Shown piece by piece: positions 12,588 through 28,472 of a stretch of DNA of 64,000 nt (position 1 is the first letter of the stretch; every line of letters starts with the position of its first letter). The notes below the pieces were generated by a model that was not told the DNA's origin, did no database searches, and saw only the letters and a program-made list of their open reading frames with translations. A program made the translations under genes and the position numbers. Source of the DNA: an uncultured Anaeroplasmatales bacterium (GTDB lineage: Bacteria; Bacillota_I; Bacilli_A; Acholeplasmatales; JAEDCM01); NCBI GenBank assembly GCA_964634685.1, contig CAZWLD010000005.1, positions 3,624 through 67,623 of the forward strand, in the 5' to 3' direction.

Positions 12588-12620
12588 TTAAACCATTTAT
12601 AGGCTTAAATAATGCTTTTT
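12579..12620 (+). terminator. possible terminator after rarA
   Basis: AAGCATTA (12579-12586) pairs with TAATGCTT (12610-12617), followed by a T-run. The 23-nt loop weakens the call. Confidence 0.4.
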
Positions 12621-12715
12621 CTTTATTCAATTATCATATCATATAAAGAGGTGATTTTCATTGAACCAAAAGGCATTTATCATTGTTGTGACGCTCATTC
12701 TCTTTATTATTCTTC

Positions 12716-13291: not shown

Positions 13292-13328
13292 CCACTTTTT
13301 TTTATTATAACAAAGTCATAGCGTAAAA

Positions 13329-15002
13329 TCAATGAATTACATTTTTATATTCCATATCTGTAATAAATCCTGATTGAACGCGACAGCTTTTATCCTGATA
13401 TCGATAGATAAAATCACCCTTCCCGACCAAATAAATAGCTTGATCATTATCTAATAATTCATATGATTGACCGATATTATTTACCTTAAAAACTAATTTG
13501 ACCGGGAGTGTACTTTTAAGTAAATTGGTAATTGTATTAGGTTTTCGATTAATAACAACTAACGATATTCCAACCTTTTGACCGATTTGGGCTAAATAGA
13601 TAATTTTTCCTTCAATAGCTTGAAAATTCATACTGTCATATATTATTTCTAATCCATTAATGAAAAGAAAAAGATAATCCATTGTTTCACAATCAATTTT
13701 TTTTAAGTTAATAGCCTTGTTACATTCCTCGAGGCTATTGACCCCTAAAAATTTGAACAAATCCATTCTTCTTTCAATTTCATTTACAATCTCCGTAAAG
13801 GCTTTATCTAGTCCCTTTACATCCTTATAGTAATCAAATATTTCTAATTCGATAAATTCTTTATTTAAGTCCACAAAGGTAATTTTTATGGGCTTTTTTA
13901 ATAATTTTATTCCGGTAATCATTCCTTTAATGAAGGTTTTGATTCCCGTATTTAAAGAACCGCTTAACAACATATGAAGTCCTTTTTTATAATCAAAATC
14001 GATGATTTGATTATTAACATCAAATCCTAAATTGATGTTCTCATTTTCCTCCTTTAAGACTTTTTTTAATGACAACAAATCCTTAAACTTATTTTCAAAT
14101 TGAATTAATACTTGTCCCTTATCTATGGACATATAATAGGCCCCCGTAATAATTTCCTTGATTCTCGATTTTAAGATTTGCTCATCATAATTATTAAGGG
14201 TAAGCCTAATCTCAGAAAATAAATAGGACACACTAAAGCTCGTCTTTAAAACCTCGTAATTTAAAACCTTCATGAGATTACATACACCGTAATGAAGATC
14301 CTCAGTAATCTTATTTTGGAGATTCATATTGATGTTTGAATCAGAATCTGATAAAAGAGTAATGTTCTTCTTTTTGGGCTTTTTTTGATAATCGATTTTT
14401 TTAAAATAAGCAATGATTAGATAATAAATTTCCTTTAGCTTAATTACAAATCTTTTTAATAAATGATAAAAGCTAAAGAGATTATTATTTGAAATAAAAA
14501 TAAAAGAAATAAAAAGAACGAGGATGATTACTAAAAAGGAGCCAATATCTCCAAACAAAAAATAAAGGATTTGATAAATAAAGCCGCCAATCAAGCCACC
14601 ACCCATTATGTAGCTATCCTGAAAGCTTTTTAAATAAAGCATATAGATGTTCCACATTCCAACTAAGGAATTACTTCCATAGGCAAAGGAAAAGGTATAA
14701 AAATTTTGATGGGATAAGAGCATTAGACTTAACAATAATAAAAAAATACCATTGTACCTTAAGGTAAATAGATTAAATTTTTCTTTCTTAAAAACAAGAA
14801 GAAAACCGCTAACCATTCCCGTTAATAAAAAGCCAAAATACCAATCTCCTACTAATATTCGAAATAAAATCTGAAGTCCTGTTCCTATTTTTCCAATGGA
14901 AGCTAAAATAATCGTGGAAACAAAAATCAATCCCATCCCAATTAGCTCATAATATATTTCCTTATCCTCTTTGACCTCACGGAGCTTCTTTTCTTTGCCC
15001 AT
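13329..15002 (-). CDS. FtsK/SpoIIIE-like membrane protein with degenerate (non-catalytic) motor domain
   Basis: FtsK-type 4-TM N-terminus and a collinear motor-domain match. The Walker A position reads LLSGSLNTGIK (13935-13967), the Walker B position reads LFLFINGLE, and ATQRPS is replaced by VINRKPN. Confidence 0.7.
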   Translation of the reverse strand: MGKEKKLREVKEDKEIYYELIGMGLIFVSTIILASIGKIGTGLQILFRILVGDWYFGFLLTGMVSGFLLVFKKEKFNLFTLRYNGIFLLLLSLMLLSHQNFYTFSFAYGSNSLVGMWNIYMLYLKSFQDSYIMGGGLIGGFIYQILYFLFGDIGSFLVIILVLFISFIFISNNNLFSFYHLLKRFVIKLKEIYYLIIAYFKKIDYQKKPKKKNITLLSDSDSNINMNLQNKITEDLHYGVCNLMKVLNYEVLKTSFSVSYLFSEIRLTLNNYDEQILKSRIKEIITGAYYMSIDKGQVLIQFENKFKDLLSLKKVLKEENENINLGFDVNNQIIDFDYKKGLHMLLSGSLNTGIKTFIKGMITGIKLLKKPIKITFVDLNKEFIELEIFDYYKDVKGLDKAFTEIVNEIERRMDLFKFLGVNSLEECNKAINLKKIDCETMDYLFLFINGLEIIYDSMNFQAIEGKIIYLAQIGQKVGISLVVINRKPNTITNLLKSTLPVKLVFKVNNIGQSYELLDNDQAIYLVGKGDFIYRYQDKSCRVQSGFITDMEYKNVIH

Positions 15003-15078
15003 TATATCACCATTTTAATGATACAATAATGAAAAATCGATTTTTGTAAAAAAAAATGATTTTTTTTATTTTTTCCCC

Positions 15079-15107
15079 TTGACATTAGTTTTTTTAGATG
15101 TTACAAT
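15079..15107 (+). promoter_or_regulatory. near-consensus sigma-A promoter (TTGACA-17-TACAAT with TGn extension)
   Basis: TTGACA at 15079-15084, a 17-nt spacer ending in TGT, and TACAAT at 15102-15107. No plus-strand CDS lies downstream. Confidence 0.6.
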
Positions 15108-15112
15108 ATAGA

Positions 15113-15247
15113 TGCATTCGATAAGAATGCTACTTATCCCCTATAATTGTATGTCAATCATACAAAAAATTTTATTCACAAATCCCCTTTTTAAAAGAAC
15201 CCTACTTGCCCAAGTAGGGTTCATCCCTTTTATAGGGATTTTTTTTT
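15113..15247 (+). ncRNA. candidate orphan small RNA (about 135 nt), family unknown
   Basis: Predicted TSS just after the promoter. Hairpins at 15114-15130, 15147-15165 and 15197-15222 (11-12 bp perfect), then terminator ATCCCT/AGGGAT at 15223-15239 plus a T-run to 15247. Confidence 0.45.
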
Positions 15248-15386
15248 GCTGTTAAAAAAGTCTTAAGAATATACTTAGGAACGAAAAATCTTAACTTTTT
15301 TTTGAAGCATATCATCACCTCTATTTAACCACCCCATAATTTTTCATCAAATGGGTACTTAAGTATAAAATTTGTTTTCTTCAAAT

Positions 15387-15410
15387 AAAAAAAAGGGTTG
15401 ATTTCAACCC
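15387..15410 (-). terminator. intrinsic terminator ending the seven-gene operon
   Basis: GGGTTG (15395-15400) pairs with CAACCC (15405-15410) around a 4-nt loop, followed on the minus strand by 8 T. It sits 5 nt after the stop at 15416. Confidence 0.6.
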
Positions 15411-15415
15411 ATTTT

Positions 15416-17149
15416 CTATATTTTATTTAATGCATCGATAATATCATAGCTAATATTATCATTGACAGTATAATCACGAATATATTGAAGATACTCATCA
15501 CAAATATTCTTCATAATACCTTGAGCCTCTGTGCATTCATTTTGAATTCGCATCTTGATACGTGATCTCTTACGATTATATAGGAAAATATTGATCGCCG
15601 TGATAATGAAAAATCCACAGCCAACAAGGAAGCCTAAATAATAAAGCTCCATTTCTTTTTGAATCATAAGCATACCTAGGGCTGTACCAGCAATGGCGAT
15701 GATTAAGCTAAGTAATGTTGGAATAATCGAAACCTTGCGAAGAAGGGTATTCTTCTTTTTTTCATAAAAGCCAATTACCTTTGAATCCTCACGGTCAGGG
15801 TTTTCCAAATCACAGATATTTTCATAGTCGTTGATACGGACTCTTCTTTCGGATGTCATAAGCTTGCGATAATCCTCAAAATAGGCATTAGCGGCCTTAA
15901 TTACAATATCCTTAGTTAAAGAAAACATATTCCAAATTGCTAAATTGCTGATGTTCTTTTCCTTAGGATCAAAAATCCATCCAACCATTTGATTAACCAA
16001 ATTAAGTGGCGATTTTTCTTCCTTTTTCTTGGCCTCATATATTTCCTTTGCGAGTTCAATATTGCCTTTATTTTTAATAATTTCCTCTTGATATTCAATT
16101 TCCTCATAAAGCTTCTTTTCCTTTTCACTTGGAACGTCGACTATATGATCTAAATAATTTTTTAAATAAGAATTTTTATCATCATCCGAGAAATTATTGA
16201 TTTTATTAATAAATTCTAAAATAGCGGAATTATTTTTGGCCCTTGATAAAATCAAAGTCAATTTATCTACATCCAAGCAATAATTTGCTAAATTCTTGTA
16301 ATATGAGGTTTCAGGAACATCCAAATGCACAAAATAATTATTGACATAATCAACTAAAGAGGCTTGAGATTGCTTTGCTTCCTTGCTTTTTAGTTGAGTT
16401 TGTAGATATTCCTTAATATCAACACTAATCGCATCCAGATTTTTGTCAGATACCTTACCACTTAATAAGGATATTAGCATCAAAAAGGTATCATCATCAC
16501 TCTTTTGCATATATGACTTTTGATAACGCTTAAACCAAAGACCAGCTGCTTCCTCACGTCCCATCAATAAATTGAAAATCATGAAGAAAATCGAGGTGTT
16601 TTTTTCATCAAGTGTCAAAGCATTTTTTAAAGCCTTATTAGCTCCATGCTTATTATCCTTTTTCCAATATAAAATCGCAACACAAGCTGCCGTAAGCCAA
16701 TAATCTGGTGATTTTAATTGCTTCTTTTCAATGCTTTTTTCTAAAACATCATCGGATACAACCTCTAAATTAAAGCTATCAAGAAGGGCTAAAATAACTC
16801 TTCTTACCGTACGATATTCATCAAAGGAATAATAAAGGTCATCCTGAAGGGCACGAATTTTTTTATTCGCATCCTCCATATTTTTGAAGGAATGATATAT
16901 CCTTTCAATCTCTAATTCAAGCTCATAGCTGTTTAGCATCATATCTGTTGAGGCCTTCAAGATATCTTTTGATTTATCGAGCTCAGCCTCAACCTTTTTA
17001 TTATATTCAGCTATTTCATTATTAGCCTTATCAACGGAATTAGTGACAAATTCAATTTCACCCTTGATTGTCTCATTTTTTCGCAATATTTCTTTTAGTT
17101 GCCCCTCAAGACGACTAATTTCGGATTTTAATTCACTTACTTCAACCAC
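15416..17149 (-). CDS. operon gene 7: coiled-coil/helical-repeat protein with C-terminal 2-TM hairpin (paralogue of genes 2 and 3)
   Basis: 577 aa, GTG start 8 nt after GGAGG. N-terminal heptad-rich region, the block DYWLTAACVAILYWKK..ANKALKNAL..FFMIFNLLMGREEAAGLWFKRY shared with the paralogues, and two C-terminal hydrophobic helices. Confidence 0.7.
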   Translation of the reverse strand: MVEVSELKSEISRLEGQLKEILRKNETIKGEIEFVTNSVDKANNEIAEYNKKVEAELDKSKDILKASTDMMLNSYELELEIERIYHSFKNMEDANKKIRALQDDLYYSFDEYRTVRRVILALLDSFNLEVVSDDVLEKSIEKKQLKSPDYWLTAACVAILYWKKDNKHGANKALKNALTLDEKNTSIFFMIFNLLMGREEAAGLWFKRYQKSYMQKSDDDTFLMLISLLSGKVSDKNLDAISVDIKEYLQTQLKSKEAKQSQASLVDYVNNYFVHLDVPETSYYKNLANYCLDVDKLTLILSRAKNNSAILEFINKINNFSDDDKNSYLKNYLDHIVDVPSEKEKKLYEEIEYQEEIIKNKGNIELAKEIYEAKKKEEKSPLNLVNQMVGWIFDPKEKNISNLAIWNMFSLTKDIVIKAANAYFEDYRKLMTSERRVRINDYENICDLENPDREDSKVIGFYEKKKNTLLRKVSIIPTLLSLIIAIAGTALGMLMIQKEMELYYLGFLVGCGFFIITAINIFLYNRKRSRIKMRIQNECTEAQGIMKNICDEYLQYIRDYTVNDNISYDIIDALNKI

Positions 17150-17152
17150 AGA

Positions 17153-18652
17153 TTAGTCCTCCTTTGAAGCATTTATCGCTCTTTCATTACCCCAGCTACG
17201 GCATTGCTCAATTGTCTCGGGATTTGAAATTGAAATCGGAATAATGCTCTTAATTTTCTTACAAACAAGATCAAAGGTAATGGCATCCTGTCCATTTAAA
17301 ATGGCATATTGGGCAACCTCCTTGATGGCGGTTTCAATATCCGCTGACGAATAGCCCTTGGTTAGCTCAACTAAGGTCTCAAGCTCGGAATCAAGGAAAT
17401 TAACATGAAGGCAACGATCACCATAATAAAGAATAACATTTTTTCGTTCCTCTTTATTAGGTAAATCAATGAAGAACATTTCCGAAAAACGGCCCTTACG
17501 GAAAAGTTCACTTGGAAGCTTAGTTACATCATTAGCGGTTGCTACAAGGAAAACGCGGCTTGTCGATTCCTGAAGCCAAAACAAAAATTGACCTAAAATT
17601 CGTTTACCCGTATCATTTCCCGAATCCGATGTTGATAAGGCCTTTTCGATTTCATCAATCCAAAGAACACAAGGCGAAACGTTGTCGATAAAATCCAAAG
17701 CCTCCTTCATCTTCTTTTCACTTTCTCCGACCCATTTATCGTAGACATTTCCTAAATCAAAGCGGAATAAAGGAAGCTCCCATTCAAGCGAAATCATCTT
17801 TGCCGATAGGGATTTACCACATCCTGGAACACCGGCAAGCAAAATTCCCTTTGGTGTTTCAAGGCTACGGGACGCAAGCACCTCATCAGGCGCAAAGAAG
17901 ATATTTTTCTTTTCCTTGAGCCAATCCTTAAGATTTTCTAGTCCGGCCACCTTGATAGTTGGATTAACCTCAACTAATTGAACGGTTGAAACACCCGAAT
18001 AAAGACGATTCTTTTGCTTTGTTAAATCGATAATATTATTTTTACCTAAGCCTTGTGGGGAAACTAAAGCGGCGGATAAAATATTCTCTAATTGAATCTC
18101 CGAAAAGCCTCTTAATAAGGTTGCGGCCTTGCGAGTTGCTTCATCATCCCAATTGATTTTAAAACGACCACTATAGGTTCGGATAAATTCATTAATTTGG
18201 ATAGCCCGTTCACTCATATCCGGAAAATCCAAAACGGTAATCATTCCGAAGCGAACCAAGCGACTCCAAACCTCATCCGGCGTTACAATGATAACGGTAC
18301 AGCTACTTTCCTTAGCTAAATATAAAACATTTAGTAAATCTCGGCTGTAGCTATTGTCACAATCAAGGTGTTTAATATCACCAATCGCAAAAATCATATT
18401 GTGGCGCTTTTTAAAGGTCTTAACCATATATCCAAGCGGATCACTATCGATATTAAGCGGTGTGCCCTCATTTTTCATATTATAGACCTGTTTAGCGTCT
18501 GTATAATACTCCAAATCAAGGTTTTTCTCATAGGCTAATTCTCCTAATAATCGTTCCACACGCTCTCTTTCGGCGGATTTTACGATAATTAACGGCGTTC
18601 TAGCACAAATATAATTAAATATTTCTTTTTTTACTGTACGAAAATTACTCAT
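17153..18652 (-). CDS. operon gene 6: classic-clade AAA+ ATPase, Ycf46-like architecture
   Basis: 499 aa. Walker A GVPGCGKS (aa 274-281), Walker B VLWIDEIEK, sensor-1 ATAN and SRH arginines FRKGRFS. The roughly 250-aa N-terminal region has no P-loop. GVPGCGKSLSAK...LPLFRFDLG...VGESE resembles Ycf46-type proteins. Confidence 0.8.
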   Translation of the reverse strand: MSNFRTVKKEIFNYICARTPLIIVKSAERERVERLLGELAYEKNLDLEYYTDAKQVYNMKNEGTPLNIDSDPLGYMVKTFKKRHNMIFAIGDIKHLDCDNSYSRDLLNVLYLAKESSCTVIIVTPDEVWSRLVRFGMITVLDFPDMSERAIQINEFIRTYSGRFKINWDDEATRKAATLLRGFSEIQLENILSAALVSPQGLGKNNIIDLTKQKNRLYSGVSTVQLVEVNPTIKVAGLENLKDWLKEKKNIFFAPDEVLASRSLETPKGILLAGVPGCGKSLSAKMISLEWELPLFRFDLGNVYDKWVGESEKKMKEALDFIDNVSPCVLWIDEIEKALSTSDSGNDTGKRILGQFLFWLQESTSRVFLVATANDVTKLPSELFRKGRFSEMFFIDLPNKEERKNVILYYGDRCLHVNFLDSELETLVELTKGYSSADIETAIKEVAQYAILNGQDAITFDLVCKKIKSIIPISISNPETIEQCRSWGNERAINASKED

Positions 18653-19147
18653 TTAATCACCTACTTTAAATATTTCGCCAAACGCTAATTTTTTCATGTC
18701 ATACAAAACATTAACATATTCCCGATTAACCCGTCCATTGAGTTCAAAAAATAGCGATAAATCCTTAAAGTATTTTTTAAGCTCCTGACATATTTGATCG
18801 GATAATTGCTTTCTTGTTTCAAAGCGAACAAATTCCAGATTTTGATAAAATGTTAAATTAACAAAATCATTTTTTAGTTTTTTTAAAAGTCTTGAAATAC
18901 CGATAAAATCATTGACCTCAATCATAAAATTAATATCCTTGTTAAATTTTTTTAGCTTTTTCGACATTGTAAAATTCAAATAGGAAACTAATTGATTTTG
19001 AAAAAGTCCAATAATATAGCTATCGTTTTCAAGCTTTCCTTGCCGAAGAATATTCGCATCATCCTCGGTCATTTCGTATTCCTTAAAATATTCAAAGGCC
19101 CGAAGCCATTCATTATATGTTGTTGGGGGATAAATAAACGCTTGCAT
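18653..19147 (-). CDS. operon gene 5: 164-aa hypothetical helical protein
   Basis: No recognisable motif. Its start shares one base with the stop of the 59-aa ORF (TAATG), and its stop abuts the AAA+ start (TAAATG). Confidence 0.6.
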   Translation of the reverse strand: MQAFIYPPTTYNEWLRAFEYFKEYEMTEDDANILRQGKLENDSYIIGLFQNQLVSYLNFTMSKKLKKFNKDINFMIEVNDFIGISRLLKKLKNDFVNLTFYQNLEFVRFETRKQLSDQICQELKKYFKDLSLFFELNGRVNREYVNVLYDMKKLAFGEIFKVGD

Positions 19148-19326
19148 TATTTAAAGAATGAAAAAGGTGGCTCTAAACTCCAAGCTGGAAGCTTTTTGTT
19201 CATTTCCTTAAGTTTTTCATTAGATAAATCGGTCGTCTTTTCATCATCATCGGCTTTAACAAGATTTTTCATAATATTTTTTTCTAATTTATCATTAATT
19301 TGAATTAAGTTTTCCTCATTTTTCAT
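19147..19326 (-). CDS. operon gene 4: unlisted 59-aa ORF
   Basis: Hand translation gives MKNEENLIQINDKLEKNIMKNLVKADDDEKTTDLSNEKLKEMNKKLPAWSLEPPFSFFK. GGAGG lies 8 nt upstream of the ATG at 19326. It falls below the track's 60-aa cutoff and fills the only apparent gap in the operon. Confidence 0.6.
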   Translation of the reverse strand: MKNEENLIQINDKLEKNIMKNLVKADDDEKTTDLSNEKLKEMNKKLPAWSLEPPFSFFK

Positions 19327-19338
19327 GATTAATTCCTC

Positions 19339-20937
19339 CTATAGATGCTCAATTAAGCTATAAAGCTCAGTTTTTAAAGCTTTATTTTCTTCAATTTGAC
19401 GCTTAGCCTCGGCTAATTCCGTCATTAACAATCTTAATACCTGCTGCTGTTGCTTGAGCTGATCCTTATATTTCTTTTCAGCTAAGCAAATTCTAGTGAT
19501 GAGAAGCACTCCAAAAACACCAGTTGCAATGTAGCTAAATGGTGATAATTGTAAGCCCCCAACAACACCTAAAGCTGCTAATAATAATAAAATTATATTT
19601 AAGACATTGGCATATTTAATACCAAATTTATGCTTTTCAAAGGATTCCTTCATGGCTTCTAGCTGTTCGCGTTCATCATCGCCATTGGAAATGGATTTAA
19701 AGCTTCCAATTTGAATCGCAAACTGCGTCGGATTCTTACTTTCAAAGGAGCTCGACCACTCATTTAAGGCTCCAAGGAACCAAACCTTTGTATTTTGGAA
19801 GGAGAATTTACGCACCTGCTCGTCCGTGTCGGCATCATATAACGCCCAGTTAACCATTTGTTTACCAATGTTATAGCCGCTATCACGAACATCCATCATC
19901 TCTGTGTATTGCTTCTTCGCAAATTCGGTATCACCATCATTTTTAACAATCATTTGGTAATACTCCTTTTGCTTACGTAATTCAACCTCATCCTTATCAT
20001 AATTGTTAATTAAATCCTCTAAAACCGCATCAACACGAACTTTGTAATTGGCATTAGTCTGATTTACCATCTCAACATCGACAGCCTTAATTAGTTCAAT
20101 TAAATCATTGTATTTTGCGGATTCCAAATAGGCAAACATAACATTATCATAATTTGAACAATGAGATTTAATGGTTTTGAAATTAAATTCCTTTTTGCTC
20201 TTGAGATTAACAAGATAATTTTTAAATGAATCAACAATTTCTGTGCTGATATCTTCATTTAAATTGATTTCCATTACCCAGTTATCAATAACCTGTTGTA
20301 CCTCAAATTCAAGCTCCTTATCCTTGCCAAACAAGCCATTAACATAAGCCTGAATAATGATAGCTGTTTCGCTTTGGATTTGGGTTGGGTCAAGCGTCTT
20401 CATATATTCGAAGAACCAGCGCTTGGCCGTTGGGATTCGATTAAAACGGATATTCATCAAACAGAAAAACAAAGATGTTTTAACTGGATCCTTTCGGAAG
20501 CTTTCGCTAACCGCATTATTAGCGAGATCCGGTTGGTCATTAACCCAAGCTGTGATAGCAATTAAAGCATAGCTTAGCCAATAACGACTTGAGGTCATCC
20601 ACAATTCTTCGGATAATTCCTCAATCGTACTGTTACGAATAAGGTTAATATCAAAGTCCTTAACAACACCCATAACGGTTCTTCTGACTTCAACATAATT
20701 ATTAAATTTCTCGCGAATAACCTGATCAATACGAATGATATTTTCATGAGCAATTTGCTTTTCCTCATTTAAAATCATTTCATTTTTAAATTTATTGACA
20801 CGATCATAAATTCGATCGGTTGTTTGCTTGATGGTGTTGGTCGCTTGGTTGACATTTTCAATCTTGACGTCAACCTTCGTTTTAAACCCTTCTAAGGTTT
20901 CATTCAATTGCTTGACTGCATTTTCTGAACTACTCAT
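19339..20937 (-). CDS. operon gene 3: coiled-coil/helical-repeat protein with C-terminal 2-TM hairpin plus terminal coiled coil
   Basis: 532 aa with an ATGA overlap with gene 2. Shared block RYWLSYALIAITAWVN..ANNAV..FFCLMNIRFNRIPTAKRWFFEYM, and two TM helices (VLNIILLLLAALGVVGG, YIATGVFGVLLITRICL). Confidence 0.7.
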   Translation of the reverse strand: MSSSENAVKQLNETLEGFKTKVDVKIENVNQATNTIKQTTDRIYDRVNKFKNEMILNEEKQIAHENIIRIDQVIREKFNNYVEVRRTVMGVVKDFDINLIRNSTIEELSEELWMTSSRYWLSYALIAITAWVNDQPDLANNAVSESFRKDPVKTSLFFCLMNIRFNRIPTAKRWFFEYMKTLDPTQIQSETAIIIQAYVNGLFGKDKELEFEVQQVIDNWVMEINLNEDISTEIVDSFKNYLVNLKSKKEFNFKTIKSHCSNYDNVMFAYLESAKYNDLIELIKAVDVEMVNQTNANYKVRVDAVLEDLINNYDKDEVELRKQKEYYQMIVKNDGDTEFAKKQYTEMMDVRDSGYNIGKQMVNWALYDADTDEQVRKFSFQNTKVWFLGALNEWSSSFESKNPTQFAIQIGSFKSISNGDDEREQLEAMKESFEKHKFGIKYANVLNIILLLLAALGVVGGLQLSPFSYIATGVFGVLLITRICLAEKKYKDQLKQQQQVLRLLMTELAEAKRQIEENKALKTELYSLIEHL

Positions 20938-22772
20938 TTAGTGCTCTCTCCTTCACTTTTAAATCGTTCGATTGTGGCTTTAAGAACCATCGCCTTTTTA
21001 TCCGCATCCTTATAGGCATCATACCATCTATCAAAATCCTTAATGGTATCCTCTAATTGTTTAACATATTTTTCCTTACGCTTATTGAAGGTTCGTTTTC
21101 TTCGTAAAATTCCAAAAATTGATAATCCACCGAAGATAACAGTTATTGCCATTCCCACGATTAAGGCAATAACATCATAATATACTGGTAAAAGGGCAAG
21201 AGTGGTAATACCACACAATGTTAGCATTAAAGAGATGATAATAAGTCGATTATCAAAGGCATACCAGAAAAAGGATTTTGAGTAATGCTTATTTAAATTC
21301 TTAAAGGCTTCCTCGTCATGTCCATATTGATAGGGAATATGGTATTCATCAATCACAAATTCATATTCCTGCTTGAGCTGACTTTGATAATTCTTTTGGA
21401 AATTTTGGGCTCCTTGGACTAAGCAATCATTAAGATAATTCATCGCAAAATGGCGAAGCCTGATATTTAGATTAACATCCTTATCAGCTATGGCCCATCT
21501 TAATAAAAGCTCATCAAGGCCAAATTTATGGTTGTTTTCATACAATAATTCGTAATTCTTGGTTGCAACCGTAATATCACCCTTAGCCTGAATAATGGCC
21601 TCGTGGTATTTTATCTTTTTGAAAATCTCATATTCATCATCGTCATAGGAATTAATTAAATCATATAAGGTGTTTTCAATTTTTCTTGCTAAATCGGTCA
21701 CATCATCCTCGCTTATGGCGTAAATTTCGGTGAAATAATTAGCAAGACAAAAATTCTTTTCCGCGAGGGTTAATAAATTCAACATATCTTGATAATTTGT
21801 ACAATAACGAGAAAGATTGATAAATTCTTCCTTAGTCGAATGCGGATAGGCATTCATATATTCCGTAAATTGATTTGTAACCTTTCTTTCATAGCCAACA
21901 TTAAGAATCTTGACCTTATTAATGATATCATCAATTTCCTTTGCAACCTGACTAGAGAAGCCTTGACTTTTTCCAAAGCAATTATATAAATATGCCTCTA
22001 ATAAATATTGCCATTCCTCTCCAACGGCCGAAATATCAAAGCGATCTAAATATTTTAAAAACCACATTCGAGCCGCATCAATTCTTGTAAATCGTAAATT
22101 AATTAATAAGAAATATAGACAAGCCCGATTATGATCTAAATTCAAGGCCTTTACAATTGCACGGTTAGCTGCCTCTTCTTCATTATTGGCCCAAAGCATT
22201 ACCGCTGATAAGGCATAGCTAAGCCAATATTCTGAATTTTGAAGAACGGTTTTTTCAACCTTCATTCGAAGATTTTCATTGTGAATAATATGATTATCTA
22301 GACCAATAACATAGCCTAAGGCAATTCTTCTGAGCTCATTATAGAAATGATACTTCGTATTATACATTTGTGTATATTCCGTTAAGCTTTTCGAAGCCGC
22401 ACTAATATTTTTTAATGAAAAATACGATACTGTTAGTTCATCCAATATATGAAATAATGATTCGGTATAGTCATTAATCTCCTTCATTGCCTTACCAGTT
22501 CCATCCATATCGGTCGAAATCTTGTCGCGAACATCCGAGGCATTAGCTGTAATTTTGATGGTTTCACCAACAACATTATCAAGCTCCTTCGATAATTGAT
22601 TTTGTAAAGCAATAGCCTCCTCAATTTTTTGTAAAAGAGAAGCCTTCTTTTCTTCTAGTTCTTCAATTTGCGCCTGTAATTGTTCTTCCTTAGATATTTC
22701 ATTGTTATCTAAAGCAACTACTTCATCATCGATTTGGGAAATTGGTTCTTTTTCAATTTGTTTATTTTCCAT
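20934..22772 (-). CDS. operon gene 2: coiled-coil/helical-repeat protein with C-terminal 2-TM hairpin
   Basis: 612 aa. Acidic coiled-coil N-terminus, shared block EYWLSYALSAVMLWAN..ANRAIVKAL..YFLLINLRFTRIDAARMWFLKYL, and two TM helices near the C-terminus. Confidence 0.7.
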   Translation of the reverse strand: MENKQIEKEPISQIDDEVVALDNNEISKEEQLQAQIEELEEKKASLLQKIEEAIALQNQLSKELDNVVGETIKITANASDVRDKISTDMDGTGKAMKEINDYTESLFHILDELTVSYFSLKNISAASKSLTEYTQMYNTKYHFYNELRRIALGYVIGLDNHIIHNENLRMKVEKTVLQNSEYWLSYALSAVMLWANNEEEAANRAIVKALNLDHNRACLYFLLINLRFTRIDAARMWFLKYLDRFDISAVGEEWQYLLEAYLYNCFGKSQGFSSQVAKEIDDIINKVKILNVGYERKVTNQFTEYMNAYPHSTKEEFINLSRYCTNYQDMLNLLTLAEKNFCLANYFTEIYAISEDDVTDLARKIENTLYDLINSYDDDEYEIFKKIKYHEAIIQAKGDITVATKNYELLYENNHKFGLDELLLRWAIADKDVNLNIRLRHFAMNYLNDCLVQGAQNFQKNYQSQLKQEYEFVIDEYHIPYQYGHDEEAFKNLNKHYSKSFFWYAFDNRLIIISLMLTLCGITTLALLPVYYDVIALIVGMAITVIFGGLSIFGILRRKRTFNKRKEKYVKQLEDTIKDFDRWYDAYKDADKKAMVLKATIERFKSEGESTK

Positions 22773-22815
22773 TTTTCAAATACGTCTAAACGATAAAGTA
22801 AAGACTCTCCTTTCT

Positions 22816-25716
22816 TTATAATCCTGATACCTTGCAACAAAACTCCATATGTTTGTCGATAAAGCCCTTTACGCCCTCTAGATATTTCTTAAAGCGTACA
22901 GCCTTTGCGCCAATTCTAATATCCTGATTGATATTTAAGTTAGCCTCAAAGAAGCTTCTTAGAATTCGCTCAGACATTTTGTCATCATCCTTATTTTTTA
23001 ATAAATAGGCCTGAGGAACATTAATCGAAATATAATCCTGCGCAAAAGGAATTTCGACACTGATATCACCTAGTGGATCTAAAAGATGACAGCTAAATTC
23101 AATAAAGTAATCATATTTCTTATCAAGCTTAGCATACATCAAGAAATTAGCAAAGGCTTTACCAGATAATTTAATATTCTTTATATACAAGCTTTGGAAG
23201 ATAACCTCATCAAATGGATAGGAATCGTTTAACCTGAGTAAATAATATTCAAGACATTCTGGCTTAACAGCTTGTCCATTTTCAACTAAAATACGGATAA
23301 CATTTCCATCAATTCTTTGATCCTTAATATAATCGATGAATTCCTGTGTTCCTAGAGTTAATTTACGATTACATAATTGTAAAACAACACGCTTCATCAC
23401 ACTAGGACTATCGTTGTTCTTCCTAAGATAATTAGCCAAAATAGTACTGAAATAAAGAGGATTCATATTTAAATCTAAAAGCATTTGCACAACCAATGGC
23501 TTTTGGTCACCATCATAATTTGAGGTGATGACATATCTCTCTAAAGCTGTAATTGGAATGTCTTGGACATTTTTAAATAAGACCTCTAATACTTTAATTC
23601 TTTCCTCGACTGAGCTTTGATTGAAGCAAAGATAGTAATTCATAATATTGTCATATGATTTTCTGGAAATATTGAATTCACATAGCTTTTCAAGCATTTC
23701 AATTTTCGAATCTAAGGTAAAATAAGGTTTTCGAAGAAATTCATTCATAGCTCGATAATCAAAATCATATGGAAGCTTTTTATCGATTAAAACGCTAATA
23801 ATTTTTAATCCAATTAAATCATTTTTACATTTGCCCGTTAAGACAAAATCTAAGATAAGCATAAACTGGTCATAAGAAATATCACTCGCAAGTAATTCAA
23901 AAACCGGCTCAACATATTTGGTATCATTTGCGCTGAATAAAACGTAGCGAATTAAAAATTCACTGTCGATAATGATTTGCTTCTTGCTAGCAATTAAAAC
24001 AACCTGAACCTTGGTTGAAACCTTATCAAGACTATTCTTTAAATAATCCTCGACAAGCTTTGAATCCGTAATATTATAGGCATCAGCCTTTAGTAAGATT
24101 TCAACTAAATCAAGCTTCGCATCGCCATCCTTGAAATTCTTTAAAATCTTCGTTAGAGTTAATTTTTTATCTTTATATTCTAAGCGGGAAACTAGACGGT
24201 AAATAATTCGATTGTAGCCTTCCTGTAAAAGGAAATCCAAGACAGCTTGGAAAACTGGTTCTTCGGTTATATTTTCATAATTGATAATATTTTGAATAAA
24301 AGACGTTCTTGTTTCATCACCTAATGTATAGAATAAAGATAAAAGCAATCCGTAGATATTATCGTCCTTAAGCATAACATAAATCGCCGTTTCATCGTCT
24401 GAAATAACCTCAACATTTTGGACAATATTGGTATTTAATTCCTTAATTTGGGATAAAAGAGCATCAACATTAGCATTTGGTTGATAGATTCTTCTTAATA
24501 AATAAGCCAAATTAACGATAGTTGTACAAATATGATTAGGATAATTTCTTTCACAATCAACTAAATAGGTTTTGGCATTTGGAAAATCCTCACAAGCAAT
24601 TGCCCCTAAGCAATTCTTGAGACTTTGGGTGTATTCTAAATCCGCCGCTACTGATGTTTCATCCTTACTAATGTTCGCTAAGGCCTGCTCCATCTTGGCA
24701 ATACGTTCACGTTGTTCCTTACGATACAATTCATCGCTTAATTCATCACGATGAATAATTTCATCTAATTCTTCCTTTAATTCTTTTCTTGTTTCTTCAT
24801 TTTCGGTCACATTCATTTGAACACATAACAGCAATTGTTCAAATTTTCCATACTGGTCAATGACCGCATCAATGGTGTTAATATGCTTAAAGCTATAGGA
24901 AAATTGCTTATGAGCATATTCGTCGATTTCGAAATAGATAAGGTTCTTGTTAATTCTTTGGGCATATTGAGCTTCCTTAACACATTCATCCGAATCTAAA
25001 AAATTCTTGGAGCCCACAATCAAAAAGCATTTCGAATTCTTGATTCCTAAGGCAATGTCATCATATCTTGTTTTCGGATTATGACCTAAATCTCTTGGGG
25101 CAATAAAGCATTTTAGCTGTTCATCCTCTAAAAGCTCTAAAATATCATAAGCCAAATCCTTATCCTTATCGGCATAGAGAATAAAAACATCGCGTTTATT
25201 TTCATCAATGACTAATTCCTGTTCTTTGCGCTTTGTTTCCTTAACTAAAAGCTGATACCAACGATTTTGAATTGATGGATCCTCAAAGGCTTTACCGATA
25301 AACTCCATCACATATTTATTGTAGCGGAGGGAGCATGTGACAATCATATGCTTTAAAACCTCGGCGATATTTTCATCCGTTGCATAAGAAAAATCCGCAT
25401 TTAATAAAAAGTCAACATAATTTGAATCGTCATAAAAAATGCGTGATGCATAGGCTTGATAATAATTGGCTAAAAAGTCATCTGGTAAGATTCCTAAAAT
25501 CTCATTTGAATAATCACTTATTTCTTGATAATCAAAGGCATTAACGGCATGAATAAGCTTAAAACGATATTCATTGATTCGTCTGGCCTCAATATCGGAT
25601 ACAGTTCCAAATTCACTTGCGAGCTTAATATTATTAGCTCGTCCACAATTATGACACGTTCCATCAGGAGCGAGATTTGAAAAGCCACAATGTGTACATT
25701 TTAGATAATGTCCCAT
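22816..25716 (-). CDS. operon gene 1: Zn-ribbon + TIR-domain protein with a roughly 680-aa helical C-terminal region
   Basis: 966 aa. CxxC-x10-CxxC at aa 7-24. TIR-like block at aa 176-285 (24862-25191): DVFILYADKDKDLAYDILELLEDEQLKCFIAPRDLGHNP..KCFLIVGSKNFLDSDECVKEAQYA..TIDAV, with E248 at the catalytic-Glu position. Confidence 0.75.
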   Translation of the reverse strand: MGHYLKCTHCGFSNLAPDGTCHNCGRANNIKLASEFGTVSDIEARRINEYRFKLIHAVNAFDYQEISDYSNEILGILPDDFLANYYQAYASRIFYDDSNYVDFLLNADFSYATDENIAEVLKHMIVTCSLRYNKYVMEFIGKAFEDPSIQNRWYQLLVKETKRKEQELVIDENKRDVFILYADKDKDLAYDILELLEDEQLKCFIAPRDLGHNPKTRYDDIALGIKNSKCFLIVGSKNFLDSDECVKEAQYAQRINKNLIYFEIDEYAHKQFSYSFKHINTIDAVIDQYGKFEQLLLCVQMNVTENEETRKELKEELDEIIHRDELSDELYRKEQRERIAKMEQALANISKDETSVAADLEYTQSLKNCLGAIACEDFPNAKTYLVDCERNYPNHICTTIVNLAYLLRRIYQPNANVDALLSQIKELNTNIVQNVEVISDDETAIYVMLKDDNIYGLLLSLFYTLGDETRTSFIQNIINYENITEEPVFQAVLDFLLQEGYNRIIYRLVSRLEYKDKKLTLTKILKNFKDGDAKLDLVEILLKADAYNITDSKLVEDYLKNSLDKVSTKVQVVLIASKKQIIIDSEFLIRYVLFSANDTKYVEPVFELLASDISYDQFMLILDFVLTGKCKNDLIGLKIISVLIDKKLPYDFDYRAMNEFLRKPYFTLDSKIEMLEKLCEFNISRKSYDNIMNYYLCFNQSSVEERIKVLEVLFKNVQDIPITALERYVITSNYDGDQKPLVVQMLLDLNMNPLYFSTILANYLRKNNDSPSVMKRVVLQLCNRKLTLGTQEFIDYIKDQRIDGNVIRILVENGQAVKPECLEYYLLRLNDSYPFDEVIFQSLYIKNIKLSGKAFANFLMYAKLDKKYDYFIEFSCHLLDPLGDISVEIPFAQDYISINVPQAYLLKNKDDDKMSERILRSFFEANLNINQDIRIGAKAVRFKKYLEGVKGFIDKHMEFCCKVSGL

Positions 25717-25741
25717 ATTAACAACTCCTTTTACTACCTAT

Positions 25742-25763
25742 TTTACCATATAATGATGGTAAA
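25742..25763. promoter_or_regulatory. perfect 8-6-8 palindrome upstream of the TIR operon (candidate operator)
   Basis: TTTACCAT-ATAATG-ATGGTAAA lies 26-47 nt upstream of the start codon at 25716 and overlaps -10-like hexamers. Confidence 0.35.
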
Positions 25764-25844
25764 TAAAAGTATTTATTGTCAGATTTATGAATTTTTTGAA
25801 GCGCTTGCATTATTAGTAAATGCTTATTACAAGCCATTTTCTAA

Positions 25845-25877
25845 AAGAGAAAAAAGAACTAGCACAAATCTAGTTCT
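25845..25877 (-). terminator. intrinsic terminator of rnj
   Basis: AGAACTAG (25855-25862) pairs with CTAGTTCT (25870-25877) around a 7-nt loop, followed on the minus strand by TTTTTTCTCTTTT. The stem includes the rnj stop codon. Confidence 0.6.
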
Positions 25878-27552
25878 CTGGTAAATCTGTCGAAATAATA
25901 ACCGGTATTGTAATTGGGTTACGCTTTGTTTCTTTATATAAATATTTATTTACTTCCGTTTTTAAATCATTCTTTAAATCAGCCCAATTAATATATTTAT
26001 TAACTAAATATTTTGAAACGACATTATCAAAAATGGTTTTAATATCATTATTTATATGCTCCATGTCCTTAATATGAACAAAGCCTTTTGAGACAATTTC
26101 TGGACCGGAAAGCACCTTTTTCGTTTTCGGTGAAATATTCGCAACAATCAATAAAACACCATCCTCAGATAATAATTCGCGATCTCTTAGGACAACATCA
26201 TTGACATCTCCAGCCATCGACCCATCGATTAAAACCTCATTAGCCTTAAGGTCAGCTATTGCTCCATCTAATACTTTATTATTAAAAACAAAGCCATTTC
26301 CAAGGTCCCCCATAATAATATTTTCATCATTATAGCCCATCTCTAAAGCAATTTTTCTGACATAATATTGATGGCGATATTCGCCAATAACGGGAAAAAT
26401 ATATTTCGGCTTTAAGATATTTATCATCATCTTGACCTCTTCACTTGTCGCATGACTGATTGGAAGCTTCGATTTATCAAATAATGTCACCTTAGCGCCT
26501 GTTCGATATAAAACATCAAGGGTACGCGCACTCATCTTCTCGGTTCCTTGAATCGGGAGCGTTAAAATAATGACATTATCACTTTCAGAAACATGTATTA
26601 GTCGATCAATTTTTTTGCACATTCTTTGAAGCATAAAGAAGGGCTCATGACGGTCTCCTGTCACTAAAACAACTAAATTATCATCTAAATTATCATTTTT
26701 TTCATCAATATAACGAAGATTAACCAAGACATCCTTGGGGATTTCTAAGTATCCTAGTTTAACAGCCACATCCACAATTCTTTGGGTTTTTCTTCCAATA
26801 ATCGCGATTTTTTTCTGATAAGAAATCGCTAAATCGATAACCTTTTGTATTCTTAATAAATCCGAACTAAACAAAGAAACAATAATTCTTCCACTCGCGT
26901 TCGAAAAAACACCATTAAGCTTGTGCATTAATTCATAGTGGTGAGCCGGATTTCCAAATTGATCAGCGCCATAGCTCTCAGTCATAAGACATAAAACCTT
27001 TTTCTTGGCAACCTCGTTTAACCTTGCAAAATTCGTTTGGTATTTCTTATCGACATTTTGATCAAAGGTATAATTTCCGGTATAAACAATACTTCCATCC
27101 TTCGTTTCAATAACAATCGCAATTGATTCCGGAATATTGTGAGTTGTCGCAAAAAAGGAAACAGAGGATGACTGAAATTTTAAGGTTGTATTATTATTAA
27201 CTGTTATTAATTTGACATCATCGAGCTTATAGTCATTCTCAAGTAGTAAATCACTTATTAGGGCATTAGTAAAGCTTGTACCATAAATAGGTACATCGAT
27301 TTCCTTCAACAAATGCGGAATAGCCCCGATATGCTCAATATGACAGTGGGTAATAAAAAGCCCACGAATTCGATTTTTATTTTCAACTAAATAACTAAAA
27401 TCTGGGATAATAGTATCTATTCCAAGAAGCTCAACCGAAGGATATTTAATTCCCGCATCCAAAATAAAAATATCTTGGTCAACCTCAACAACATACATAT
27501 TTTTTCCCTTTTCACCCAAACCACCGAGGGCGCCTGCAATAATTTTGCTCAT
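25870..27552 (-). CDS. rnj: ribonuclease J (metallo-beta-lactamase/beta-CASP family), variant motif II
   Basis: 560 aa with the RNase J layout. Motif II reads HCHIEH (27331-27348) instead of the usual HGHEDH. Confidence 0.85.
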   Translation of the reverse strand: MSKIIAGALGGLGEKGKNMYVVEVDQDIFILDAGIKYPSVELLGIDTIIPDFSYLVENKNRIRGLFITHCHIEHIGAIPHLLKEIDVPIYGTSFTNALISDLLLENDYKLDDVKLITVNNNTTLKFQSSSVSFFATTHNIPESIAIVIETKDGSIVYTGNYTFDQNVDKKYQTNFARLNEVAKKKVLCLMTESYGADQFGNPAHHYELMHKLNGVFSNASGRIIVSLFSSDLLRIQKVIDLAISYQKKIAIIGRKTQRIVDVAVKLGYLEIPKDVLVNLRYIDEKNDNLDDNLVVLVTGDRHEPFFMLQRMCKKIDRLIHVSESDNVIILTLPIQGTEKMSARTLDVLYRTGAKVTLFDKSKLPISHATSEEVKMMINILKPKYIFPVIGEYRHQYYVRKIALEMGYNDENIIMGDLGNGFVFNNKVLDGAIADLKANEVLIDGSMAGDVNDVVLRDRELLSEDGVLLIVANISPKTKKVLSGPEIVSKGFVHIKDMEHINNDIKTIFDNVVSKYLVNKYINWADLKNDLKTEVNKYLYKETKRNPITIPVIISTDLPEN

Positions 27553-27623: not shown

Positions 27624-28472
27624 TTACGGCTTTTTTTCATCCTCAATTATGATTTTATAATATTTATCGACAATATTCTCATCTAAAGTGACATGTGGGA
27701 GTCTAACATATGGCTTAATGATTCCAAGTTTTCCTAATAATGCCTTGATCATAACGGGGTTGGGCTCATAGAATAAAACCTGAAAACGAACGCGATATTG
27801 ATTAAATTCAATCTCATCATTAGCCTCAATATTTTTTTTGATTTCCTTAGTAAAGAGATGTGCAGCCACGCTAATAACTCCATCAAACCCCCGCTTATAT
27901 GCCTCATAAATTAAATAATCCTCACCAATATATAAAGCTAAATCCGTCTCATGCTTGATTCTTTCCATCAAATCAAAATTACATGAGGCTTCTTTTATTC
28001 CTTTAATATTCTCAACCATCGATAAGCTTTTAATCGTCTCAAAGCTAAGGCTTACTCCCGTTCTTCCTGGAATATTATAGAGCCAAATGTCGCGATTAGT
28101 GTGATATGCAACCTCCCGAAAATGCGCCTCTAGACCCTTTTGGGATGGCTTACTGTAATAAGGAACGACTACCAAATAGCCATCGCAATCAATGTCTTTG
28201 ATGTATTCTAAAAAATCAATGGTTGCTTTTGTATCATTTGTCCCAACACCAAAAATTAGTTTACATCTTTTATCAATCAAAATGCTCGCAAATTCATATA
28301 GCTTCCTTTTTTCCTTGAAGCTTAAGGTTGGCGCTTCGCCGGTTGTACCTCCGACGACAATACCATCAATTCCATCATCTAATAATCGTAAAATTAAACG
28401 TTTAAAATTCAAATAATCAATCGTTAGATCCTCTTTAAAGGGCGTGACAATGGCTGTATAAATGTCAAACAT
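27624..28472 (-). CDS. dapA: 4-hydroxy-tetrahydrodipicolinate synthase
   Basis: TAIVTPF...GIVVGGTTGEAPTLS...YNIPGRTG motifs, 282 aa. Confidence 0.9.
   Translation of the reverse strand: MFDIYTAIVTPFKEDLTIDYLNFKRLILRLLDDGIDGIVVGGTTGEAPTLSFKEKRKLYEFASILIDKRCKLIFGVGTNDTKATIDFLEYIKDIDCDGYLVVVPYYSKPSQKGLEAHFREVAYHTNRDIWLYNIPGRTGVSLSFETIKSLSMVENIKGIKEASCNFDLMERIKHETDLALYIGEDYLIYEAYKRGFDGVISVAAHLFTKEIKKNIEANDEIEFNQYRVRFQVLFYEPNPVMIKALLGKLGIIKPYVRLPHVTLDENIVDKYYKIIIEDEKKP

Follow-up and report, generated by a model that had tools for sequence, protein, structure and literature searches.

What kind of system is encoded by the seven tandem genes that lie between rnj and an ftsK-like gene in an uncultured Anaeroplasmatales bacterium, and how central to it is the TIR domain found in the first of them? 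The genes occupy part of a 64,000-nucleotide stretch of contig CAZWLD010000005.1 (assembly GCA_964634685.1), referred to in its entirety as the window, and a sequence-only reading had singled them out as a candidate undescribed conflict or defence operon. Comparison with other genomes shows that the operon belongs to a widespread, undescribed family of 5- to 12-gene cassettes arranged around a Cdc48-like ATPase and membrane-anchored coiled-coil proteins, to which the TIR domain has been added in a few lineages only. The window operon has all four core genes of this family in the conserved order, namely a paralogue of the coiled-coil proteins, a small protein carrying an LPxW peptide, the gene 5 protein and an AAA+ ATPase with an inactive first ATPase domain (D1).

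The seven open reading frames (ORFs) lie on the minus strand in a single direction and are listed below from upstream to downstream with their flanking signals and domains.

25853-25879, minus strand: intrinsic terminator of rnj, a hairpin followed by a T-run, forming the upstream limit of the unit; collinearity with the sister strain L001 stops inside the hairpin
25717-25852, minus strand: own 5' region of the operon, with promoter-like hexamers at 25782-25753 (consensus scan) and, ahead of the ATG of gene 1, the ribosome-binding site AAAGGAG
22816-25716, minus strand: gene 1, 966 amino acids, composed of a Zn-ribbon, a linker, a TIR domain and a ~600-residue helical domain; read as the "ZnHel" hub subunit of the cassettes plus a graft
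25645-25698, minus strand: N-terminal Zn-ribbon of gene 1 (C7, C10, C21 and C24 as CxxC...CxxC), the four cysteines being invariant among orthologues
24829-25188, minus strand: TIR domain of gene 1, residues 177-296 (Pfam TIR_2, 51.3 bits; cut-off 28), with putative catalytic glutamate E248
22822-24627, minus strand: helical domain of gene 1, residues 364-965, homologous to the TIR-less ~660-residue ZnHel protein of wider cassettes
20934-22772, minus strand: gene 2, 612 amino acids, paralogue A, with coiled coil, TPR-like helical domain, β-hairpin, transmembrane (TM) hairpin and C-terminal helix
19339-20937, minus strand: gene 3, 532 amino acids, paralogue B, the most conserved paralogue and the nearest to the single paralogue of minimal systems
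19147-19326, minus strand: gene 4, a 59-residue protein present in 76/76 cassettes
19150-19212, minus strand: C-terminal peptide of gene 4, LKEMNKKLPAWSLEPPFSFFK, with a near-invariant KKLPxW[SN]LEPP from Firmicutes to Bifidobacterium
18653-19147, minus strand: gene 5, a 164-residue helical protein with an N-terminal TYxEW motif
17153-18652, minus strand: gene 6, a 499-residue AAA+ ATPase (Pfam AAA, 98.8 bits; phrog_8638, E 3e-89)
17963-18652, minus strand: N-terminal half of gene 6, residues 1-230, a degenerate D1-like AAA module without Walker A, with PLIIVKSAERER at the P-loop position
17243-17887, minus strand: active second AAA module (D2) and lid of gene 6, residues 256-470, assigned from Pfam and PDB matches and motifs
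15416-17149, minus strand: gene 7, 577 amino acids, paralogue C, with a GTG start
15395-15410, minus strand: closing intrinsic terminator of the operon, GGGTTGAAATCAACCC followed by T8

The junctions, read directly from the DNA, are closely packed. Genes 2 and 3 share an ATGA overlap and genes 4 and 5 a TAATG overlap, genes 5 and 6 abut as TAAATG, a GGAGG precedes gene 4, and the junction of genes 6 and 7 reads AAGGAGGAC-TAA-TCT-GTG with a GGAGG placed within the end of gene 6 ahead of the GTG start of gene 7. The sequence-only reading holds in all of these respects: its seven ORFs are found at exactly the coordinates it gave, the coupling-type junctions (ATGA, TAATG, TAAATG and a 3-nucleotide gap with GGAGG before the GTG) read as it described, and the bracketing terminators that it placed at 15387-15410 and 25845-25877 are a near-exact match to the computed 15410-15395 (-) and 25879-25853 (-). 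Since all seven genes, even the 59-residue gene 4, are kept in order in dozens of distant genomes, they are real genes and not chance ORFs, and they form a single real operon. A scan of the whole window against Rfam returned no RNA families, and the idea of a compositionally foreign region was rejected because the GC content of the operon (0.337) is close to that of the window (0.332).

The upstream border is defined further by the sister strain L001, which is 98.6% identical and collinear with the window from 12000 to 25858, that is, into the rnj terminator. Upstream of the breakpoint, L001 has an RHS/YD-repeat cassette in place of rnj, and the position of the breakpoint inside the terminator indicates that the junction between rnj and gene 1 is a strain-level insertion hotspot for conflict genes. 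The ~140-bp stretch above gene 1 is kept in L001 despite the different upstream DNA, indicating that this region travels with the operon, and it presumably holds the promoter. The replacing segment (L001 1-2794) consists of an RHS/YD-repeat toxin gene and four small ORFs directly upstream of gene 1.

A profile built from the paralogues retrieves hundreds of proteins annotated as "hypothetical", and a six-gene order recurs in contigs from Lachnospiraceae, Oscillospiraceae and Chloroflexi, comprising two paralogues, a ~60-residue protein, a ~165-residue protein, a ~500-residue AAA protein and a third paralogue. Genes 2, 3, 4, 6 and 7 of the window are 32-54% identical to their cassette orthologues. 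Among the retrieved loci (n = 80) the paralogues are present in 80/80, and the small protein and the AAA protein in 76/76 where the contig reaches them. The sequence-only reading had proposed a survey of co-occurrence, and the genes do co-occur outside the window genome, with a patchy distribution across phyla. In a scan of one genome per species with two peptide patterns, about 99 of 185,579 species genomes (~0.05% of species) are carriers, a count that undershoots divergent members. The carriers are Lachnospiraceae, Oscillospiraceae, Ruminococcus and Christensenellaceae, together with Anaeroplasma and other metagenome-assembled genomes of Bacilli, three Bifidobacterium species, Eggerthellaceae and metagenome-assembled genomes of Anaerolinea. 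The patchy spread across phyla points to horizontal transfer.

The cassettes found elsewhere are mostly larger than the window operon. The six-gene module is preceded by a Band_7_1 protein with SPFH, linker and double-Zn-ribbon regions, a ~231-residue protein with four TM segments (4-TM) and a ~660-residue ZnHel protein, giving a 9-gene form in 41 of the 80 loci; the SPFH gene is present in 62/80 related cassettes and also in L186. An extra block inserted between ZnHel and the first paralogue occurs in 26 of the 80 loci and consists of a ~900-residue HerA-like ATPase, an acidic protein of ~700 residues that ends in a Cys/His domain, and a ~160-residue protein. The seven-gene set, which the sequence-only reading had taken as the form of the system, is thus one arrangement among 9- to 12-gene cassettes and a five-gene minimal form, and the window operon, which has no SPFH or 4-TM gene, is a reduced, derived version of the 9- to 12-gene cassette. 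Beyond the ATPase, the core proteins match no Pfam, NCBIfam, PADLOC or PHROGs family; the other matches obtained are to TIR_2, AAA, SPFH/DZR and HerA-like families and to coiled-coil noise, and the literature searched contained no description of the gene set. The borders of the cassette are sharp, since 330 flanking ORFs fall into 292 clusters and no flanking gene recurs.

Two observations concern components of the larger cassettes. The ~700-residue protein (L003 7395-9491 and its equivalent in 28 other loci) is extremely acidic with tandem EVPEVSQEMPEAEE-like repeats and ends in a ~200-residue domain having GTCGPTS...DHW motifs suggestive of a papain-like peptidase, which Pfam does not recognise. 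In the window itself, a fragment of a Band_7_1 (YdjI-type) SPFH gene runs off the left end (1-300, minus strand) beside dtd and relA, 15 kb from the operon; it is 27% identical to the cassette SPFH protein and scores 20 bits with Pfam, below the cut-off, and it could be the stand-alone SPFH partner of this lineage or be unrelated.

The smallest versions of the system lie largely on mobile elements. Used as a tblastn query, gene 3 identified remote homologues, at 23-26% identity and 77-90% coverage, on two plasmids of Komagataeibacter nataicola (26 and 38 kb), on a megaplasmid of Comamonas antarctica, in Fusobacterium vincentii and in the Streptococcus satellite phage Javan368. The minimal gene set comprises a ~160-residue Cys...His protein, a ~570-residue member of the paralogue family, a ~60-residue protein, a gene 5 homologue of 154-186 residues and an AAA protein with 39-40% full-length identity to gene 6. 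In the Komagataeibacter plasmids the set is placed between insertion sequence elements and among toxin-antitoxin genes, and in Javan368 it occupies the accessory end. Two IMG/VR contigs also carry it, and a second scan of the viral contigs with an alignment of the minimal paralogues returned one contig only, already known. PADLOC and Pfam recognise nothing in the minimal systems but the AAA core. Genes 4, 5 and 6 with one paralogue are the irreducible core, present in every version.

The ~160-residue protein of the minimal systems (L100 1106-1576, L101 8444-8929, L099 13775-14257 and L103 9628-10119) carries the signature KC[YH]LGxP[YH]E[VA]H...IEV, whose Cys and His may form a catalytic pair; Pfam, PADLOC and PHROGs contain no match to this protein, and it is not found in the window operon. 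In Javan368 (L099, MK448457.1) the small protein corresponds to an unannotated 58-residue ORF at ~11409-11585 (+) that ends in ...GLPSWDIVPPQLLVRRKRQK.

Gene 6 is the best-defined component of the core. In its D2 module, Walker A (GVPGCGKS), Walker B (DEIEK), a substrate-threading pore loop (KWVG), a sensor (TAN) and an arginine region (RKGRF) are present without variation across 46 homologues, and the best PDB sequence matches of the protein are the D2 modules of VAT, Cdc48 and p97. The AlphaFold2 model of gene 6 (predicted local distance difference test (pLDDT) 84.6, predicted template modelling score (pTM) 0.73) can be superposed from end to end on the D1-D2 tandems of AFG2, Cdc48, p97, NVL and Rix7 (TMq 0.65-0.73, E 6e-21). 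On the evidence of this model and of the motifs, gene 6 is a type-II (Cdc48-like tandem) member of the classic clade with a predicted dead D1 and active D2, so that the intact classic-clade AAA+ ATPase recognised earlier from the sequence is upheld. In a difference with the Cdc48-type unfoldases Cdc48, p97, VAT and AFG2, the protein has only 499 residues, no N-domain and a D1 without Walker A, and its partners have no relation to the ubiquitin or proteasome pathways. The missing cofactor- and substrate-binding N-domain implies that gene 6 needs adaptors.

Other assignments for the ATPase were considered and rejected. Of the features of gene 6, only the pore loop KWVGESEK resembles the Vps4/meiotic clade; a Vps4-like ATPase was set aside because the N-terminal half is a D1-like α/β module, no MIT domain is present and Vps4 is not among the top PDB matches. 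The Cdc48-like ATPases associated with CoCoNuT belong to a different system. PADLOC models of IetA match gene 6 (E 1.8e-29), as might be noted for the Iet system of an IetA AAA+ ATPase and an IetS protease, but the match spans only the generic AAA module (residues 256-470), the 76 bits of NCBIfam IteA fall short of its cut-off of 510 and no IetS-like protease gene is present. The homologues of gene 6 are named only "AAA family ATPase" in their sources, and in length and layout the protein would suit the Ycf46-like label that the sequence-only reading gave it. Among phage contigs, D1-dead/D2-active AAA+ proteins of ~500 residues (phrog_8638, no assigned function) are common, some on contigs of >100 kb (L102-L181, IMG/VR); they have 27-33% identity and their partner genes are absent.

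The two small proteins are conserved with the ATPase in every version. The last ~20 residues of gene 4 are almost invariant across phyla, the cassette form of this tail being [DN]ERLKEMNKKLPxW[SN]LEPPxxFLK, kept in 76/76 loci, and the small proteins of the minimal systems end in a clearly related ...LPxWD[LI]xP..F[VI]RR. Such conservation at one terminus suggests that the C-terminal peptide of gene 4 is likely a docking motif. A jackhmmer search joins the window, cassette and minimal-system versions of gene 5 (80/80 sequences, E<=5e-22), and no Pfam or PDB match was found for the protein.

Genes 2, 3 and 7 are mutually paralogous (BLASTP E 1e-41, 4e-24 and 5e-22), and each has a long coiled coil at the N-terminus, a TPR-like helical domain and, near its end, two hydrophobic helices followed by a C-terminal helix, which bears out the earlier description of diverged paralogues ending in two-TM hairpins. 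The hairpins have Lys/Arg clusters on both sides and a connecting loop of 5-8 residues, which by the positive-inside rule would place both termini and the bulk of each paralogue in the cytoplasm. The AlphaFold2 model of gene 2 (pLDDT 82, pTM 0.60) shows a single helix of 113 residues, a TPR-like domain (residues 142-463), a β-hairpin, the TM hairpin and a long C-terminal helix. In Foldseek searches with this model, neither PDB nor BFVD yielded a match at E<0.02, and resemblances to TPR proteins, α-SNAP and AhlB/SmhB were set aside as too weak. Genes 1 and 5 and the profile of the paralogues, when searched against PDB sequences, returned nothing, or designed coiled coils only. The tripartite α-pore-forming toxins (AhlABC, SmhABC and Hbl/Nhe) likewise comprise three all-helical paralogues that have a hydrophobic hairpin, and the AhlB/SmhB pores align with the gene 2 model at Foldseek probabilities of 0.5-0.8 and TMt ~0.28, which is not significant (E >= 0.2); in contrast with the toxins, genes 2, 3 and 7 have no signal peptides, are predicted to be cytoplasmically oriented and have a TPR-like domain.

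The place of the TIR domain is clarified by dissecting gene 1. Residues 364-965 match the TIR-less ZnHel protein of a wider cassette (L003 2658-4661, BLASTP E 4e-44), and a profile search of 1.84 billion representative sequences separates three groups: ~65 plain ZnHel proteins of ~660 residues matching the helical part alone, a few TIR-bearing forms of ~940-970 residues, and many proteins of 357-2031 residues matching residues ~3-300 only, that is, the Zn ribbon, linker and TIR domain. The relatives of this Zn-ribbon-TIR module carry C-terminal TPR, BspA-type leucine-rich repeat (LRR), RCC1, Sel1 or Flg_new repeats. On these alignments, gene 1 is a conserved helical hub subunit bearing a grafted, portable Zn-ribbon-TIR module. 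A TIR domain is found in 0/80 surveyed cassettes and in none of the minimal systems. The TIR-ZnHel form also occurs within a full 9-gene cassette with SPFH and 4-TM genes (L186/L187) and, at another locus, beside a helix-turn-helix gene (L185). The proteins that share the N-terminal module of gene 1 (P0321, P0324, P0339, P0345, P0360, P0382 and others) constitute a large receptor-like TIR family with a near-universal catalytic Glu.

It could be supposed that the operon is an immune system centred on the TIR domain, consuming NAD+ or generating a signal, with the other six proteins acting as sensors and regulators. TIR_2 exceeds the Pfam cut-off with a Glu at the catalytic position, just as the sequence-only reading described for gene 1; this column is Glu in 55/59 module relatives and in 6/9 full-length TIR-ZnHel proteins, and in other proteins the module is joined to receptor-like arrays of repeats. 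In a weak alignment (E 0.084), E248 falls on the Glu of the WCxxEL motif of Cat1, the preceding Trp being Glu in gene 1. Against a TIR-centred system, three of the five orthologues nearest to the window protein have A, Q and Q at the E248 position, with TIR cores and operons that are otherwise conserved, so that TIR catalysis is dispensable. The absence of TIR from 80/80 cassettes and from all minimal systems means that it cannot be the core effector, and no ThsA-like or other signal-receiving effector is present among the seven proteins. A TIR-centred system is therefore improbable. The TIR domain of the window may well be active as a catalyst; even so, the distribution of the domain indicates that its catalysis does not hold the operon together and that it is an add-on of few lineages and not the heart of the system, in which respect the earlier choice of the TIR protein as the defining element is not borne out.

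Profile searches of the seven proteins agree with the earlier statement that the gene set fits no named TIR system, as no SIR2/Macro/SLOG, CD-NTase, Argonaute or STAND partner was detected. For Thoeris, PADLOC ThsB matches only at E 0.006 and no SIR2, Macro or SLOG domain was found in the seven proteins; for CBASS/Pycsar, no cyclase family matches and CAP12-PCTIR_TIR scores 17.7 bits, below the cut-off of 24.7; for SPARTA and short pAgo systems, Pfam and PADLOC gave no Argonaute or APAZ matches; and for Avs/TIR-STAND the sole match is to nSTAND3, which scores 20 bits on the AAA core of gene 6, below its threshold of 27. The operon has in common with TIR immunity (Thoeris ThsB, CBASS/Pycsar TIR effectors, SPARTA, TIR-STAND/Avs and Rst_2TM_1TM_TIR) the TIR_2 domain with its Glu and the presence of membrane-protein partners, and differs in that the defining partners are absent and that TIR is an optional graft in the cassette family.

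The history of the locus is seen in the clade with the TIR form of gene 1, which comprises five protein clusters with 55-99% identity. All five lineages keep the same seven genes at one locus, after pbp1-recU-...-dapA-rnj, and where the contig continues downstream an ftsK-like gene (L087, L091) or an LRR protein (L089/L090) follows. Identities to the window within this clade are as follows.

Gene 6 (AAA) 83-88%; gene 4 80-88%; gene 3 78-82%; rnj 77-80%
dapA 62-68%; gene 7 59-76%; gene 2 59-71%; gene 1 56-65%
pbp1 51-61%; gene 5 51-75%; ftsK-like gene 44-45%

These values suggest that the operon is under strong purifying selection in the window lineage and is as conserved as housekeeping genes. 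In more distant relatives (rnj 51-52%) the synteny from a dpaA-like gene through to dapA and rnj is kept and the ftsK-like gene lies within ~200 bp of rnj with no operon between them, indicating that the operon was inserted at this junction and then vertically inherited. The sequence-only reading had regarded universal conservation at a fixed locus, together with sporulation- or division-linked expression, as a finding that would count against a conflict system; the same locus and a housekeeping-like pace of evolution are indeed found in all close relatives, whereas the operon is absent from this position in the more distant ones.

The fixed locus raises the possibility of a housekeeping module tied to sporulation or cell division, situated as it is between rnj, dapA and dpa genes and an ftsK/spoIIIE-like gene. 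The locus is constant in close relatives and its neighbours include dpaA-like, dapA, rnj, ftsK-like, recU and pbp1 genes. Such a role is nonetheless very improbable, as the distant relatives with the same synteny have rnj followed by ftsK and no operon, the cassette occupies unrelated contexts in other genomes, and it is present in the non-spore-formers Bifidobacterium, Eggerthellaceae and Anaeroplasma.

Several neighbouring features were also noted. The ftsK/spoIIIE-like gene (13329-15002, minus strand) encodes a 557-residue protein with several N-terminal TM segments and a weak FtsK_SpoIIIE match (32 bits), and with 44-45% conservation compared with 77-80% for rnj it may be a degenerate or specialised translocase. 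Dipicolinate-synthase-like genes at 28465-29777 of the window and spoVA genes in relatives (L089/L090 668-2487) indicate that the host lineage forms endospores. An LRR_5 protein is encoded directly downstream of the operon in L089/L090, from 20465.

With TIR catalysis and a sporulation function placed in the background, two kinds of role are left to be weighed, and both start from the same architecture. We tentatively favour a membrane-anchored machine driven by the Cdc48-like AAA+ unfoldase, with an added TIR output, whose role would be that of a membrane-acting conflict system, a reading to which we would give slightly less than an even chance. The paralogues would assemble into a hetero-oligomeric scaffold along the membrane's inner face, and the gene 4 tail and gene 5 would act as adaptors that dock the ATPase hexamer or its substrate onto the TPR-like domains. 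ATP-driven remodelling would then toggle the assembly between resting and active states, the most likely role being that of a horizontally mobile system directed against phage or other mobile genetic elements through membrane perturbation or exclusion. Lineage-specific add-ons would supply extra outputs, here a TIR domain that probably still cleaves NAD+ and elsewhere the HerA-like ATPase with the Cys/His protein. A conflict role is favoured because of the horizontal mobility, the carriage on plasmids and a satellite phage, and the immune-type add-ons; the TIR domain and the HerA-like ATPase with the acidic Cys/His protein vary at one cassette position and are of kinds typical of immune systems.

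A number of findings weigh against a conflict role. The partner genes occur on only 2-3 of 2.9 million viral contigs, and beyond the generic AAA core no component matches PADLOC v2 or NCBIfam anti-phage models. The 94 sampled flanking genes are mostly housekeeping, with sporadic defence matches and no recurrent integrases, and the flank survey led to rejection of the idea that the 9/12-gene cassette resides in defence islands or on integrative elements. Evolution is slow for immune genes, gene 6 being 60-64% identical across phyla (Clostridia orthologues) and above rnj in the window clade, to which are added the single locus kept by all five TIR-clade lineages, the loss of the TIR glutamate in close orthologues and the SPFH protein at the head of the larger cassettes. 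What stands of the original conflict/defence proposal is that the sequences point to a distinct multi-component system for which such a role is plausible; its emphasis on TIR does not stand, nor are the cassette flanks defence islands.

The other role is that of an envelope-stress or membrane-remodelling machine following the logic of PspA/ESCRT-III-Vps4 or SNARE-NSF, in which the paralogues would polymerise on damaged or curved membrane and the ATPase would recycle them, with the SPFH protein organising a membrane patch in the full cassette and TIR serving as a non-enzymatic oligomerisation or adaptor domain. This is a serious possibility, close behind the conflict role though short of probable. 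The sequence-only reading had named it as its main alternative, and it gains support from the YdjI-like SPFH partner of the wider cassettes and from the ATPase architecture. In Bacillus subtilis, YdjI recruits PspA to the membrane via membrane partners and serves envelope-stress repair (PMC8581546). The first protein of the wider cassette likewise has the YdjI architecture, in which a soluble Band_7_1 SPFH region is joined through a low-complexity linker to a Zn ribbon at the C-terminus; a multi-TM protein and a Zn-ribbon protein follow it, and both assemblies would lie on the inner membrane face. In a difference with pspA-ydjGHI, there is no PspA/ESCRT-III homologue, the core brings three new paralogues of coiled-coil/TPR-like/TM type together with a tandem AAA+ ATPase and two small proteins, and the window operon is without SPFH and 4-TM genes.

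Two further likenesses of architecture bear on the remodelling role. In bacteria, PspA reportedly occurs together with a tandem AAA+ ATPase that has an inactive N-terminal copy (PMC11237479), as in gene 6. Archaeal ESCRT-like "Meth_adaptin" loci combine a Vps4-like ATPase, ESCRT-III, an SPFH-coiled-coil-Zn-ribbon protein and Zn-ribbon proteins (PMC11188069), and the cassettes similarly bring a classic-clade AAA+ ATPase, an SPFH-coiled-coil-Zn-ribbon protein and Zn-ribbon helical proteins into one locus; this resemblance is one of architecture only, and the cassettes differ in being bacterial and in having no ESCRT-III, MIT or adaptin-appendage domains. The pspA-ydjGHI operon, the Cdc48-type unfoldases and the archaeal SPFH-containing ESCRT loci are the closest functional analogies, each sharing single components or logic only. 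The strong protein conservation, the fixed locus, the housekeeping flanks of the cassettes and the dispensability of the TIR Glu in three lineages would also suit a remodelling function. Set against it, no component is detectably PspA, Snf7 or ESCRT-III (no PspA_IM30 or Snf7 Pfam match in any protein, and no significant PDB match for the gene 2 model), and the ATPase has no MIT domain and is nearest to the D1-D2 of Cdc48/AFG2 and not to Vps4. The system is moreover very rare and horizontally scattered, with minimal forms on plasmids and a phage satellite, and the TIR module and HerA block would be odd accessories for a repair system.

A broader interpretation, possible though doubtful, is that the cassettes represent an unrecognised mobile class of bacterial membrane machine whose anchors are assembled and disassembled by a Cdc48-like ATPase via a docking peptide and which is armed with immune outputs by lineage, either TIR or a HerA-like ATPase with a peptidase-like protein. 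If true, this would constitute a bacterial analogue of ESCRT-III/Vps4 or SNARE/NSF logic and a new kind of membrane-acting immune system. The comparisons bring to light a tightly conserved cassette, found in gut and rumen Clostridia, Bifidobacterium, Bacilli and Anaerolineae, in which family-less proteins accompany a Cdc48-like ATPase, and in the window a clear example of a TIR module grafted onto a pre-existing machine. Should the cassette be an immune system, it would add a membrane-based, AAA+-driven mechanism with swappable outputs (TIR or the HerA block) to the known repertoire; should it serve remodelling instead, bacteria would possess a counterpart of ATPase-recycled membrane scaffolds operating without PspA/ESCRT-III proteins. 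In both cases the family provides a defined set of genes open to testing, which can be narrowed to the five-gene minimal form and to a putative docking peptide of 20 residues.

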